Below, piece by piece: positions 38,608 to 45,048 of a stretch of 64,000 nucleotides of DNA. The first letter of the stretch is position 1; every line of letters starts with the position of its first letter. The notes under the pieces were generated by a model that was not told where the DNA came from, did not search any database, and saw only the letters and a program-made list of their open reading frames with translations. Both the position numbers and the translations under genes were made by a program. The DNA comes from an uncultured Chloroflexia bacterium (lineage in GTDB: Bacteria; Chloroflexota; Anaerolineae; Anaerolineales; Anaerolineaceae), in the NCBI GenBank assembly GCA_963802095.1, contig CAWDHI010000006.1, positions 92,302 to 156,301 on the forward strand, read 5' to 3'.

Positions 38608-38635
38608 TTGACAATTCGATTTCCCTCGCTATAAT
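38608..38635 (+). promoter_or_regulatory. consensus sigma70 promoter TTGACA-16-TATAAT for the ubiquitination-like operon
   Basis: TTGACA at 38608-38613 and TATAAT at 38630-38635, both perfect hexamers, 39 nt upstream of the E1 ATG. Confidence 0.6.
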
Positions 38636-38665
38636 CTTGTTTAGTGGTCTGATTAACAAACAAGA
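38635..38665 (+). promoter_or_regulatory. 8-bp inverted repeat TCTTGTTT-15 nt-AAACAAGA spanning the predicted +1/5'-UTR (candidate operator or SD-occluding hairpin)
   Basis: Arms at 38635-38642 and 38658-38665. The right arm overlaps the only purine-rich SD-like stretch (AAGAG) before ATG 38674. Confidence 0.35.
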
Positions 38666-38673
38666 GAATAATA

Positions 38674-40317
38674 ATGACATTCAATCTTCTTCCCCGTAAA
38701 TCCCTATCCGACGTGCTGGCCGGGCGGATCGCCAATGCCATCACCAGCGGGAAATTCAAACCCCTCAGCCAGTTGCCCTCCGAACGCGAGTTGTGCGAAC
38801 AGTTCGGGGTGGGGCGCTCCACGCTGCGGGAGGCATTAAAAGTCCTGCAGGAGAATGAGCTGATCACCGGCAAGCAGGGAGTGGGCTGGTTCGTCAATGA
38901 GTTGAATGCCTCCAATCTTGCCAATGCCCGCGAGTTGGCAGCTACGGATCTCTCCCTGATCGCGGATGATACGGATAAAAAGGCGCGGGATGAATCTGCA
39001 GGACCCAAGCGGCTGCCGGTCTCGCCGGAAAAACCGCTGGTGCTGCCCAACCTGAAGACAGACCGGCAGGGGACCTTTGAGCTGATCTCCTGGTGGGAGC
39101 GCGATAAGGTGGCAAAGGCCAAGGTGCTGGTTGTGGGGGCGGGAGCGCTTGGCAACGAGGTGGCCAAAAATCTGGCGCTGATGGGCGTGGGGCAAATTTT
39201 CATCCTGGATTTCGATACCATCGAGCTGGCCAACCTGAGCCGCTCGGTACTCTACCGCGAAAGCGACACCGGCCGCCGCAAAGCCGAAGTGGCAGCCGCC
39301 CGGCTGAAGGACCTGAACCCCAATGTACGGGTGCAGTACCTGCATGCCGATGTGACCACCGGGCTGGGGCTGGGCATCCTCCGCCGGATGGATGTGATCA
39401 TTGGCTGCCTGGATAACCGCGAGGCCCGGCTGGCTGTGAACCGATTCGCCTACTGGATGAACAAACCCTGGGTGGATGGTGCCATCCAGGAGTTCCTCGG
39501 GCTGGTGCGGGTCTTCATCCCCGGGCAGGGTGCCTGTTTTGAGTGCACGCTTACTGAGCAGGCCAGGCGGGATCTTTCCCTGCGATATTCCTGCCCACTG
39601 CTGGCGCGAGAAAACGTGCTTCTTGGCAAGGTGCCCACCACGCCGACCATCGCCTCCATCATAGGCGCCATGCAGGCACAGGAAGCGCTCAAGATCATCC
39701 ATGCGTTGCCGGTTGAGGCGGGTAAGGTTACCCATTTCAACGGCATGACCAACGATATGCACACCAGCGCTTACAAACCGCGCGAGGATTGCGAATCGCA
39801 CTGGACCTACGGCGAGGTGACCGAGCTGCCTGCGAGCGCGGGCAAGACCACCCTGGGTGAGATGGTTCGCATTGTCCACGCCGACCTTGGCGCTGAGGCC
39901 GTGCTGGAGCTGGACCAGGAGATGATCATTTCCCTGAACTGCACTGCCTGCCAGACGCGCGAGCGGGTGTTGAAGCCCATGGCGGAGGTAACATTCAAAG
40001 CTGCGCACTGCCCAACCTGCGGCAACTTGCGCGAGATCGAAATGACCCACACGGTGACTGGCAAGGAGGATTACCTTTCCCTGACCCTTGCAGATGCGGG
40101 TGTTCCTGCGCTGCACATCCTGCGCGCCTATAATGCCCGTGAATACAGATTCTACGAATTGACCGGAGACTTGAAGGAAGCGCTGCACTTCAGCCATTTT
40201 GAAAAAGCTTCCCTGGTCGGTGCGACCCGCGGGATCAAAGTTCGCCTTGGAGAGGAAGAACCATCGATCGTCGTTAAACCAAAAGACAAAGGATCCAGGA
40301 TCACCCTGAAGGAATAG
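38674..40317 (+). CDS. GntR-type wHTH fused to an E1-like (ThiF/MoeB/Uba) adenylation domain and a C-terminal CxxC-x19-CxxC/beta-grasp-like region
   Basis: aa 10-78 [64 protein letters not shown] (GntR HTH). aa 148-215 [61 protein letters not shown] (E1 Rossmann/ATP site). Candidate crossover-loop Cys in RYSCPLL. C423xxC426...C446xxC449. Confidence 0.85.
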   Translation: [547 protein letters not shown]

Positions 40318-40321
40318 ACGC

Positions 40322-43022: not shown

Positions 43023-43936
43023 GCCGTGCAATGCGGATCTATTACTTTGCCATCCTGGGGGCCATTGGAGGGTTGTTTGCCTGGCAGGCAAGCAATTACC
43101 TCGGGTTGTCGTTCTTTGGCAACCTGTATATAAGCGAGCTGGGAGTGGGAGCGCTGATCGGTTTCCTGATCGGTGCGTGCATCGGGCTTTCCGATGGATT
43201 AATGACCAGAAATTACCACCAGATGTGGCAATCCGGGCTGGCAAGCGGCCTGCTCGGCATGGCCGGTGGAGCCATCGGGCTGCCGCTTGCGGAGGCTGTT
43301 TTCCAGCTGACCGGCGGGATGCTCTTCAGCCGGATGATCGGTTGGGGAATCTTCGGGCTGGCGATCGGGTTCGCCGGGGGAATCAAAGGCGGATCGCAAG
43401 CCTGGAAAAGCGCCCTGGGAGGGCTTCTTGGCGGCGCGCTTGGGGTGTTGCTGCTGGAGGTTTTCCGTACGCTGGTTAAATCACCGGTCTACGGAAAAGG
43501 CGCCGGGCTGCTGCTGCTGGGAGCGGGGATTGGCGCGTGCATTGCGCTCTTCACCTACCTGCTTACCCGTGCCTGGTTCGAGGTGACCAGCGGCAAGATG
43601 CAGGGCACCGAGTTCATTTTGGATAAATTCCTGAAAAAGGGAGGACCGGCGGCATTCATCGGCAGCTCTCCCATGAAGTCCGATATCGTCCTGCCGGACC
43701 CGGATATCGCCCCCCAGCATGCCATCTTGCGCGGGGCTGACACCTATTTCGTCCTGAAGGATCTCAGCCTGGGCGGGACTTTCATCGATGGGAAAAAGAT
43801 GGAGGAGGCGCCGCTGCGGGACGGGCAAACGATCAGCCTTGGGACATACGAAGATCGATCTACCGGGAGAAGAGAGGCTAACCATGAACAAGAACATTTC
43901 GAAAAATTATCGCCTTTTTCGTCTGCCTGGGATTGA
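43019..43936 (+). CDS. glycine-zipper-rich polytopic membrane protein with C-terminal FHA domain (frame break near 43845; probable true stop about 43881)
   Basis: ATGA overlap with the JAB stop. About 6 helices full of GxxxG (GVGALIGFLIGACIG, GLLGMAGGAIG, GWGIFGLAIGFAGGIKGG, GGLLGGALGVLLL). FHA core ...FIGSSPMKSDIVLPDPDIAPQHAILRGADTYFVLKDLSLGGTFIDGKKMEEAPLRDGQTISLG... Confidence 0.75.
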   Translation: MSRAMRIYYFAILGAIGGLFAWQASNYLGLSFFGNLYISELGVGALIGFLIGACIGLSDGLMTRNYHQMWQSGLASGLLGMAGGAIGLPLAEAVFQLTGGMLFSRMIGWGIFGLAIGFAGGIKGGSQAWKSALGGLLGGALGVLLLEVFRTLVKSPVYGKGAGLLLLGAGIGACIALFTYLLTRAWFEVTSGKMQGTEFILDKFLKKGGPAAFIGSSPMKSDIVLPDPDIAPQHAILRGADTYFVLKDLSLGGTFIDGKKMEEAPLRDGQTISLGTYEDRSTGRREANHEQEHFEKLSPFSSAWD

Positions 43937-44975
43937 TCCTTTCGCTGACAGCAGCACCGGTGCATGCCGGGGATGAGCCGGTGGTGCGCATCACCCAGGT
44001 GGATACATCGCGCTTCCCGCTGGTGACAGTCTATATCTCGGTGACCGATGCCAACGGGCAGCCACTGCCGGTCAACCCGGGCAGCCTGGTGGTGATGGAA
44101 AACGGCCAGCCGGTGGATGCCCAGCTCCTGCAGGGCGCAGGTGAAGCAGGTCCGGTCACCACGCTGCTGCTCATGGATACCTCAGGCAGCATGGCCACCG
44201 GCAAGAAGCTGATGCGCGCAAAGGAAGTGGCCAGGGATTTCATCGGCCGCATGCGGGCAGGTGACCAGACCGGCATTCTGGCATTCAACACCGACCTGAC
44301 CCTTGCGCAGGCTGTCACCGACGATACAGACTGCGCTGGATAATGCCATCGATAAGCTTTTTGCGCGCGGAGATACCGCCATGTACGACGCCCTGGTGAG
44401 GGGTGAGGATGTTCTGGCGGATGTGCCCGGGCGGAAGGCGATCGTGGCGCTGACGGACGGGATGGATAACCGCAGCTCGGTGAAAGCCGCAGACGTGATC
44501 GGGAAGATCGCAGCCAGCGGGCTGACCATCTCGACCATCGGGCTTGGGGATTCCAACCAGACCAGCGGCAGCCAGACCGCGCTGGATGAAAAGGCGCTGA
44601 GGTATCTGGCGGAAAATAGTGGCGGACTCTATAGCTTCGCCAAGGACCCTGCTGCACTGGCAGCGATCTATGAACTCTACCAGCGCGGGCTTCAGAGCGA
44701 GTACGCGGTGACGTACACATCACCTTCCTCCCTGCGTGACGGGCTGAATAGGGTGCTTTCGGTCTCGCTGAGCGAGCAGGCGGCTGCAGTACCTGCGAAA
44801 TACAACCCCGGCGGGCTGGTGCCCGAGGTGGGTCAGCCGGCATCCTGGGGAGCGTTTCTCGGGATGCTTGGGTTTCCTGGTGCTTCTGCTCTTCGTGCCA
44901 ACCATCGTGAAGGAGGTGCGCATCCGCAGGGAGCACGGCGCCCTCGAAAGCAGCCGAGCCATCGGGGAAGGTTAA
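43884..44975 (+). CDS. von Willebrand factor A (vWA) domain protein with signal peptide and C-terminal TM anchor (3 frame breaks)
   Basis: MNKNISK(K)IIAFFVCLGLILSLTAAPVHA after correcting an A-run. MIDAS LLLMDTSGSM. ...GDTAMYDAL...ALTDGMDN...TISTIGLG... Tail ...FLGMLGFLVLLLFVPTIVKEVRIRRE... Frames change near 43905, 44325 and 44870. Confidence 0.75.
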
Positions 44976-45021
44976 GCTGAAGGAATCTCCTTCGAAGAGG
45001 ATCAAATTGAAGTAGGAAAGT

Positions 45022-45048
45022 AAATGCCCGGGTAACCGGGTATTTCTT
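45022..45048 (+). terminator. candidate intrinsic terminator of the operon (AAATGCCCGG-GTAA-CCGGGTATTT, then CTTAT)
   Basis: 10-bp stem with one G-U. The T-tract is weak. Confidence 0.4.

Follow-up and report, generated by a model that had tools for sequence, protein, structure and literature searches.

The bacterial systems of ubiquitin-like conjugation that have been studied experimentally combine an activating enzyme (E1), a conjugating enzyme (E2) and a JAB protease, and all of them serve in defence (PMC10557695, PMC11601596). They are sporadic anti-phage modules with protein fusions, oxyester chemistry and no ligase (E3). Bacterial operons with RING E3s, in contrast, are listed as uncharacterised (Chambers et al. 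2023, PMC10557695), and a complete ubiquitin toolkit was present in none of the bacterial genomes analysed by Grau-Bové et al. (2015). The present work concerns an operon in a 64,000-nucleotide (nt) stretch of contig CAWDHI010000006.1 from an uncultured bacterium of the Anaerolineaceae; the whole stretch is referred to as the window. The operon lies at about 38608-45040 on the + strand and holds separate genes for an E1, a RING protein, an E2 fused to a ubiquitin-like protein (Ubl), a free Ubl, a JAB protease, an FHA protein and a vWA protein. The existence of this seven-gene operon is confirmed. The window and its related loci point, with a probability of roughly 60%, to a functional chromosomal Ubl conjugation system at the cytoplasmic face of the membrane, typical of the Anaerolineae, which would have a housekeeping or regulatory role in the envelope and not a role in defence.

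With such an operon, the question whether bacteria have E3-dependent ubiquitination that serves the cell and not its defence becomes tractable. It also bears on which eukaryote-like features predate the eukaryotes, namely the RING E3, the ubiquitin-fold domain (UFD) of the E1, the membrane-anchored ligase and phospho-dependent targeting. A search of the literature on Anaerolineae and ubiquitin found nothing relevant, and the genes of the operon are at present annotated as 'ThiF family adenylyltransferase', 'GntR family regulator', 'FHA domain protein' or 'hypothetical'.

Composition of the operon and described systems

A sigma-70-type promoter (TTGACA-16 nt-TATAAT, 38608-38635, + strand) stands in front of the genes and, as had been noted earlier, is perfect, with 12/12 positions matching. 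The list of open reading frames (ORFs) on the + strand shows five intact, closely spaced ORFs, followed by two recognisable, frame-broken genes. The preliminary description of this DNA had spoken of seven packed same-strand ORFs. The gene set, the spacing and the ATGA overlap between the JAB stop and the FHA start at 43019 stand, whereas only five genes are intact, as the frame is broken at the 3' end of FHA and within vWA. The motifs and residue numbers given there for the E2, the JAB protease, the RING protein and the Ubl ends agree exactly with the translations. Domain calls were made with Pfam, and every primary match exceeded its gathering score; the families that had been proposed for profile searches (ThiF, UQ_con, Prok-RING, Prok-JAB/JAB, FHA and VWA) were all recovered, Prok-RING as Prok-RING_1 and the last on the fragments 43933-44343 and 44303-44980 as VWA_2/VWA.

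Judged by its predicted domains, the five-gene core, in which no member of the E1, E2, RING, Ubl and JAB set is missing and the catalytic residues are canonical, belongs to the class of E1/E2/RING/JAB operons predicted in 2011. Burroughs, Iyer and Aravind are said to have predicted such prokaryotic operons in that year (Mol Biosyst), in the work that is reportedly also the source of PF14446. Its abstract reportedly already proposed that YukD-like Ubls are conjugated and that such E1s possess a UFD. In the description of Kaur et al. 2020 (PMC7159879), separate JAB, E1 and RING genes together with a Ubl-E2 fusion form a class within the vWA ternary conflict systems. The window shares with this class the same five core families in separate genes, the Ubl-E2 fusion and a JAB protein predicted to release the Ubl. 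Its RING domain scores above the PF14446 threshold, and its E1 has a C-terminal domain where a UFD would be expected. Outside the Anaerolineae, the E1, zinc finger, Ubl-E2 and JAB genes occur in the same order as in the window in an operon from a microbial mat metagenome (L032/L033, 6472-11374: ThiF, a 104-residue zinc finger, YukD-UQ_con and JAB, beside EAD8-TPR and DO-GTPase2).

Described variants of the class include the FtsH/MoxR-vWA ternary systems, with EAD1 and caspase-like effectors, and the Pup-coupled systems. Compared with these, the following features appear to be new in the window: an E1 that carries a GntR winged helix-turn-helix (wHTH) and is accompanied by an operator, a RING protein with four transmembrane (TM) helices, an extra free Ubl, an obligate pair of a multi-TM FHA and an exported vWA protein, the lack of an effector, and conservation across the class Anaerolineae. 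No MoxR, FtsH, EAD1 fusion or caspase-like effector was found in the operon or in conserved flanks. This distinctness was judged on the published descriptions of variants, those of Burroughs et al. from 2011 not among them. The earlier statement that the locus differs from all of the systems named there holds for the overall composition; it does not hold for two of the features, since the RING domain is Prok-RING_1 and Ubl-E2 fusions are known (PMC7159879), the Ubl-E2 of type I Bub being cleaved by a JAB protease as well (PMC11601596). That no characterised system has the same composition is in agreement with the listing of RING operons as uncharacterised.

The ubiquitin operon of Caldiarchaeum subterraneum (Ub, E1, E2, small RING and Rpn11-like genes) likewise contains a full set of E1, E2, RING, deubiquitinase and Ubl in one operon. 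It has been reconstituted in vitro (Hennell James 2017; Fuchs 2018, PMC6043591). The two systems have thioester-type catalytic residues in common, the JAB protein of the window is nearest by sequence to CsRpn11 among solved proteins, and its Ubl matches CsUb in fold at 26% identity. However, the window is bacterial, its Ubl is of the YukD type, ends in Ala-Gly instead of Gly-Gly and is also found fused to the E2, and its RING protein is membrane-anchored. The E1 differs as well, with a wHTH and a short crossover loop in place of an inserted cysteine domain, and the operon also includes FHA and vWA partners.

Type I Bub systems (6E/DUF6527) comprise BubAB (Ubl-E2), BubCD (JAB-E1) and the DUF6527 protease BubE. 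They resemble the window in having a Ubl-E2 pre-protein with a conserved glycine at the junction, and cleavage of BubAB by the JAB protease after this glycine was shown experimentally in 2024 (PMC11601596). Bub chemistry uses oxyester (Ser) intermediates and an E1 without a catalytic cysteine, whereas Cys307 of the E1 and Cys194 of the E2 are invariant among the relatives of the window proteins. Moreover, the JAB protease of the window is separate from the E1, a RING E3 is present and the context is not defence-like. Pfam found no DUF6527 in the seven window proteins.

The BilABCD and CBASS Cap2/Cap3 systems also rely on bacterial E1/E2/JAB chemistry for the conjugation of a Ubl or a protein C-terminus. 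Bil, a defence system without an E3, has a tandem IAD-AAD-CYS E1, whereas the window has a single ThiF domain and a RING gene. In type II CBASS, likewise a defence system, an E1-E2 fusion acts on the CD-NTase; the window has separate E1 and E2 genes, with no CD-NTase or effector in the operon or flanks. A PADLOC search of the window proteins gave only weak matches to generic E1/JAB models (BilD 5e-8 over 73 residues), and none to BilA, BilB, BilC or to any E2, Ubl or RING model.

The conjugation machinery

The E1 (38674-40317, + strand, 547 residues) consists of a GntR/FadR-like wHTH (13-74), a linker, a ThiF domain (130-374), a zinc ribbon followed by a UFD-like region (about 380-505) and a basic tail. 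The matches to Pfam ThiF (3.9e-59) and GntR (1e-18) bear out the earlier statement that this E1 carries a DNA-binding domain. Residue invariance was scored over 19-31 orthologues, depending on the protein. In the E1 (31 orthologues), the ATP loop G155-G160, D179, R190, D247, C288-x2-C291, C307 (RYSCPLL) and C373-x2-H376 are invariant, as are C423, C446 and C449 of the zinc ribbon, with C426 nearly so. In the PDB, the eukaryotic UBA1, UBA7 and UBA3 match best by sequence, and ThiF and MoeB rank below them. The crossover loop is about 35 residues long (288-322) and bears C307, which, by eye against the sequence of human UBA3 (...ACIECTL...FPMCTIASMP), we take to be the catalytic-cysteine position. 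Neither the AlphaFold2 (AF2) model nor the alignment contains an inserted catalytic-cysteine domain, and no rhodanese domain was found in the E1. The best NCBIfam models for this protein are those of ThiF and MoeB, all under their cut-offs; for the RING, Ubl-E2, Ubl and JAB proteins NCBIfam has no model.

In the AF2 model, the wHTH is followed by a Rossmann domain and a C-terminal beta-rich domain at 380-505 (predicted local distance difference test, pLDDT, 84-92). A fold search with this model places UBA3 on top over 435 columns, compared with about 240 columns for ThiF, and a UFD-like nature of the C-terminal domain is consistent with this result. The model of the Ubl-E2 protein shows a beta-grasp and a UBC fold, with fold matches to UBC E2s (UBE2D, Rad6, UBE2K), to ubiquitin, to SUMO and to the Caldiarchaeum ubiquitin. 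Support for E1 and UBC folds, which had been left to structure prediction, is thus available at moderate pLDDT. Because this score is only about 65, the models serve for fold class alone.

The E2 (41174-42019, + strand, 281 residues) begins with an 88-residue YukD-like Ubl that ends in TADITAG, continues with a linker and a UBC domain, and closes with the tail ...ERVKL...SRVRIK. Pfam YukD and UQ_con (4.2e-10) both match within this one protein, in accordance with the earlier remark that the E2 carries its own Ubl. The residues H183, P184 and N185 of the HPN motif and Cys194 are invariant in 31 sequences, and the best PDB sequence matches are UBE2K, UBE2D and UBE2N. The free Ubl (42056-42322, + strand) has the same length of 88 residues and the identical TADITAG end, which is directly followed by the stop codon and would leave the protein ready for the E1. 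Its identity to the copy in the fusion is 65%, and its composition is acidic (8 K/R against 15 D/E). In Pfam it is assigned to YukD (6.3e-10) and has no match to a ubiquitin family, and its end is Ala-Gly, not Gly-Gly. The TAG-stop end is found in 27/28 Anaerolineae loci. In locus L026 the free Ubl ends in TAGA, and processing would be needed there. Locus L029 gives an E2 match without the N-terminal Ubl.

Sequence and homology support a thioester cascade built from these components. The E1 would adenylate the C-terminal Gly88 of the Ubl and then load the Ubl as a thioester on Cys307, from which it would pass to Cys194 of the UBC-type E2. The candidate E3 is the TM-RING protein (40322-41152, + strand, 276 residues), which has a basic N-terminus, about four TM helices, a lysine-rich linker and a RING/PHD-like domain. 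The four helices of the earlier E3 proposal are matched by about four predicted from hydropathy at residues 26-138. Hydropathy and charge further indicate that both termini are inside, with 22 K/R among the 90 residues of the linker. The C-terminal domain matches Pfam Prok-RING_1 (PF14446) at 2.5e-8, with 34.2 bits against a cut-off of 29.1. The motif CPYC-x14-CPIC-x3-HH-x2-C-x6-C-x3-H spans residues 232-272, and its eight zinc ligands (C-C-C-C-H-C-C-H) are invariant in 19 orthologues. With this four-TM Prok-RING_1 protein as E3, the E2~Ubl would be discharged onto lysine residues of proteins close to the membrane.

The JAB/JAMM metalloprotease (42351-43022, + strand, 223 residues) matches Pfam Prok-JAB at 6.9e-8. 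The JAMM residues E68, H134, H136, S144 and D147 are present and conserved in 19 orthologues, and the best PDB sequence match is the Rpn11-like protein of Caldiarchaeum (6fjv), followed by AMSH and Rpn11. By homology, the protease would reverse the conjugates. It would presumably also cut the Ubl-E2 after ...TADITAG88, which would yield a second Ubl and a free E2; this step is proposed because the two Ubl ends are identical and because type I Bub provides a precedent (PMC11601596). Two tandem JAB paralogues stand between the Ubl and FHA genes in two related loci (L026 8865-10027, L027 4530-5705).

Envelope partners, tail motif and promoter

The FHA protein (43019-43881, + strand) is predicted to have about six glycine-rich TM segments and a cytoplasmic FHA domain (Pfam FHA 1.7e-12). 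It also matches the Pfam family of the YscD cytoplasmic domain of type III secretion systems. Within the proposed cascade, this protein would provide phospho-threonine-dependent recruitment or gating. A Hanks-type Ser/Thr kinase fused to PD40/beta-propeller repeats lies about 10 kb upstream (26868-28928, + strand) and could be a source of FHA ligands, although in other genomes it does not accompany the operon.

The vWA protein (43884-45015, + strand) has a signal or anchor peptide, a beta-rich N-terminal domain, a vWA domain with the metal ion-dependent adhesion site (MIDAS) sequence DTSGS, a TM helix and a basic tail. According to hydropathy and charge, the N-terminal signal or anchor is followed by about 300 exported residues, which include the MIDAS motif DxSxS, and by one C-terminal TM helix. 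The cytoplasmic tail of about 40 residues contains 11 K/R and no acidic residue. The orthologue in locus L002 is intact at 401 residues and matches TIGR03436 above the cut-off.

The tail of the vWA protein shares a motif with the tails of the E1 and the E2. The motif [RK]-[IV]-[RKT]-[LIFV] occurs, usually in two copies, at the C-termini of these three proteins and was seen in about 25 related loci. In the window it lies at 40183-40317 (E1, with two R-[IV]-x-L motifs), 41930-42019 (E2) and about 44950-45015 (vWA). Examples are ...RIRLGEE...GRIRLHD in the E1, ...RPERVKL...PRVKLK in the E2 and ...GRIKLS...GIRLK in the vWA protein. In the E1, E2 and vWA tails, taken as the final 45 residues, the motif reaches a density of 2.8-4.0 per 100 residues, as against 0.03-0.23 in the protein bodies. 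Tails of equal length in the other four proteins lack it (RING and Ubl) or have it at about 0.2 per 100 residues (JAB and FHA). Relative to these bodies and tails, the enrichment is about 50-100 fold. Since the Ubl is acidic, it is plausible that the basic motif is a Ubl-binding strand similar to a SUMO-interacting motif (SIM) or a shared docking peptide. Through this tail the exported vWA protein would join the cascade, and the tail would be the best candidate for a substrate or receptor. A role as a general lysine acceptor consensus was rejected, as the E1 copies have mostly Arg at the variable basic positions, and binding mainly by the FHA domain is unlikely, as most copies lack Thr. No earlier description of the motif was found in the literature examined.

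A second shared element is found at the promoter. Most of the related loci have a similar promoter at an equal distance from the E1 start, and just 3' of the -10 box they often carry the palindrome TGGTCnGACCA, in many cases with the outer arms CTGGTAT...ATACCAG (L002, L010-L013, L015-L017, L019, L020, L022, L025, L027-L029). The 10-mer TGGTCNGACC is located 26-44 nt 5' of the E1 start in 15/22 loci, with 3 further occurrences in about 416 kb. The top scores of the E1 helix-turn-helix against NCBIfam models belong to the regulators NanR, PdhR, GlcC and LldR, which we take to be members of the FadR subfamily with operators of the TGGTCnGACCA type. The presence of a FadR-type palindrome at the operon promoter suggests that the wHTH of the E1 represses its own operon. 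The FadR-like domain would bind the TGGTCTGACCA promoter DNA, and the operon would be autoregulated in this way. In the clade of the window, the inverted repeat that separates the -10 box from the E1 gene (38636-38664, + strand) is a diverged copy that reads CTTGTTT-AG-TGGTCTGATTA-AC-AAACAAG, and its outer arms are altered symmetrically (CTTGTTT/AAACAAG). Because one operator half-site has been lost (TGGTCTGATTA), autoregulation may differ in this clade. An alternative function of the inverted repeat as an RNA hairpin is less likely, because the left arm lies directly against the -10 box, where most of it would stay untranscribed. An operator at this promoter was not described earlier in the literature examined.

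Eukaryotic membrane RING E3s (MARCH/RING-CH, Hrd1/Doa10) and the FHA-RING ligases RNF8 and CHFR offer an analogy for such an arrangement. Like them, the window has a multi-pass protein whose cytoplasmic C4HC3-like zinc domain would face a soluble E2, and ubiquitination would be tied to the reading of phospho-threonine. The single-pass vWA protein with its short basic tail resembles the receptor substrates of the eukaryotic membrane ligases. However, the homology is at the level of domains only, and FHA and RING are on separate proteins in the window. To our knowledge, no link to a proteasome or to Cdc48 exists in the Anaerolineae. A fully developed version of the analogy would be a vertically inherited canonical-thioester system similar to eukaryotic receptor ubiquitination, in which an FHA-gated RING protein tags the cytoplasmic tail of the vWA protein, a surface protein similar to an integrin I domain, or neighbouring envelope proteins, the SIM-like motif gathers E1, E2 and substrate by binding the acidic Ubl, and the E1 acts as a repressor. 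Taken as a whole, we regard this version as rather unlikely; if true, no earlier case would be on record of a bacterial ubiquitination pathway that has a housekeeping role and lies outside defence.

Conservation, rival readings and surroundings

A species scan with one genome per species returned 26 Anaerolineae loci, which span Anaerolineales, Ardenticatenales, Leptolinea and Anaerolinea, and one Kofleriaceae locus; as it relied on near-exact peptides, it returned mostly Anaerolineae, and absence elsewhere is not to be deduced from it. The order E1, RING, Ubl-E2, Ubl, JAB, FHA, vWA was compared by tblastn with the seven proteins of the intact locus L002 (GCA_013178295.1) and is kept in every sufficiently long locus, in about 25 Anaerolineae species, the cultured Leptolinea tardivitalis among them. 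The preliminary description had made its proposal dependent on co-conservation of the seven genes in relatives, and such co-conservation was found. Sampling based on the FHA protein led to the same operon in 2/2 members checked. The Ubl-E2 family comprises 1874 clusters, the best 120 of which all contain full-length YukD and UQ_con at identities of at least 70%. Clustering at 50% leaves essentially one representative, surrounded by a broader family in which E2s occur with and without the fusion, and the E2 identity across orders is 70-77%. The FHA family comprises 2013 clusters, with nearly all of the top 120 at 285 residues and an identity of at least 69%. Leptolinea tardivitalis encodes a wHTH-ThiF E1 (WP_062420399.1) with 71% identity and represents a cultured host with the same type of E1. 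For experiments, the operator and the tail motif would be further handles.

As a cassette, the seven genes stand on their own: their surroundings vary and consist mostly of housekeeping genes. No flanking gene family, defence-related or other, is common beyond the genus-level group of the window, where the flanks are genes for a 2-oxoacid:ferredoxin oxidoreductase and a thioesterase. The conservation of the seven genes argues for a housekeeping or regulatory role in the envelope over a role in defence.

The myxobacterial relative, in a Kofleriaceae metagenome-assembled genome (MAG; L031, 3-7651), differs in gene order and holds a YukD-like Ubl that ends in ITAGVY, an E1 without the wHTH, a JAB protein of 429 residues, an FHA protein of 453 residues, a Prok-RING_1 domain fused to DUF4190, a trypsin-like protease and an E2, with no vWA gene. 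Both the link to an FHA protein and a membrane-associated RING are thus seen again beyond the Chloroflexota.

Several observations weigh against a conserved conjugation system with an envelope role. The sister Ubl-E2 operon L032 adjoins conflict-system genes. No kinase or phosphatase gene is linked to the operon, and the operator half-site has been lost in the clade of the window. The tail motif could equally be a membrane-interface patch or a nucleic-acid-binding patch. As regards the enzymes, the RING protein has no significant match in the PDB by sequence, the UFD assignment comes from the length of the UBA3 alignment without a domain-level match, and both AF2 models are moderate (mean pLDDT 65 and 66), with badly modelled active-site loops and E1 crossover loop. 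Finally, eight indels cluster at 43.8-47.3 kb of the window, with none in the coding sequence from about 34000 to 43838.

The preliminary description had framed the operon by anti-phage defence. On a defence reading, the operon would be a conflict system comparable to Bil, CBASS Cap2/Cap3, Bub or the vWA ternary systems, with invader or effector proteins as the targets of Ubl conjugation. The defensive role of all experimentally studied relatives speaks for such a function, as do the EAD8-TPR and DO-GTPase2 genes beside the L032 operon and the SNF2, methyltransferase and nucleotidyltransferase genes that flank L002. In addition, Kaur et al. 2020 place E1/E2/RING/JAB modules in vWA ternary systems of multicellular bacteria, and the Anaerolineae are filamentous. 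However, neither the operon nor its conserved neighbourhood contains an effector (nuclease, protease, pore-former, NTPase or EAD), and MoxR/FtsH genes are missing. Defence genes are typically patchy and fast-evolving, whereas the architecture of this operon is uniform and its conservation across orders very high. The PADLOC models that match are weak and generic, the flanks in the window are housekeeping genes, and no relatives were found in viral contigs, a weak scan made with an E2 alignment and two peptide patterns only. With these points and the lack of a shared flanking family, the anti-phage framing is not supported, and a defensive function is rather unlikely.

A different question is whether the FHA and vWA genes are true pseudogenes in this genome, such that only the five-gene core, or nothing, would be functional. 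Indels were mapped by aligning the window with four close relatives of about 86% DNA identity. Compared with these four, extra bases specific to the window were found at the 3' end of the FHA gene (43839 and 43858). In the vWA gene, there are extra bases at about 43901-43912, 44332 and 44873 and a length difference at 44933-44941. The vWA gene thus has at least four frame changes, and the two genes together at least six. Two base deletions restore an FHA protein of 286 residues with the end ...ISLGHTKIVYREKRG (...HTKIVYREKRG) and the TAA stop at 43879-43881, as in the relatives. Three base deletions restore a vWA frame of 362 residues, and the conserved vWA tail ...SGKVKLKESPSKRIKLK-stop (...GKVKLKESPSKRIKLK) is found in a further frame that ends at 45015. 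Decay would fit the contrast between at least six window-specific frame changes at 43839-44941 and none at 38674-43838, a clustering unlike a uniform error rate. On the other hand, conservation of the residues between the indels is good and extends to the MIDAS site and the tail motif. Moreover, the cluster reaches beyond the operon: further window-specific indels at 46173-85, 46927 and 47309 affect two downstream genes unrelated to it, one for a metallophosphoesterase (45867-46766, - strand), the other for an acyl-ACP thioesterase (46862-47674, + strand).

The nearest relatives of the window are taken to be long-read assemblies, and each of these MAGs has comparable clusters in other genes: in the E1 of L005, L007 and L008, in JAB and FHA of L001 and L008, and in the oxidoreductase genes of L006. 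Because the relatives are intact where the window is broken and the sister MAGs are broken elsewhere, the FHA and vWA indels are most likely assembly errors in a low-quality long-read stretch, and true decay of the two genes is decidedly unlikely. The intactness of the five core genes amid indels in their neighbours, which had been pointed out earlier, could be read as a sign of selection. It is better explained by chance, since the indels of the sister MAGs fall randomly in E1, JAB, FHA and vWA, and therefore it is no evidence of selection.

A non-conjugating role is highly improbable, be it that of a sulfur carrier pair of the ThiS/MoaD type for Ubl and E1, or that of a structural, YukD-like component which the Ubl would contribute to a secretion or envelope machine with FHA and vWA: the YukD assignment of the Ubl (founding members of this family are not known to be conjugated), the sub-threshold ThiF and MoeB models for the E1 and the YscD match of the FHA protein fit such a role, but the operon also encodes a RING domain, a JAMM protease and an invariant UBC E2 (HPN, Cys194), Gly is the very last residue of the Ubl in 27/28 loci, the E1 lacks a rhodanese domain and is nearer in sequence to UBA1 than to ThiF, and no secretion ATPase or substrate genes are linked.

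Some minor features of the window complete the picture. A palindromic GC hairpin (CCCGG-GTAA-CCGGG, 45027-45040) follows the operon, before a convergent DUF1697 gene. The hairpin that had been reported after the operon is thus present, whereas its stem of just 5 bp gives it weak support. The stretch with the highest GC content of the window contains an ORF of 726 residues (17827-20007, - strand, GC 0.67), which has no Pfam match at E <= 1e-5. A low-GC island at 13816-15686 (- strand, GC 0.39) encodes a Mrr-type restriction endonuclease (Mrr_N and Mrr_cat) and a 288-residue protein with no Pfam match, and was probably acquired horizontally. Further low-GC stretches are located at 32-34 kb and 60-64 kb.

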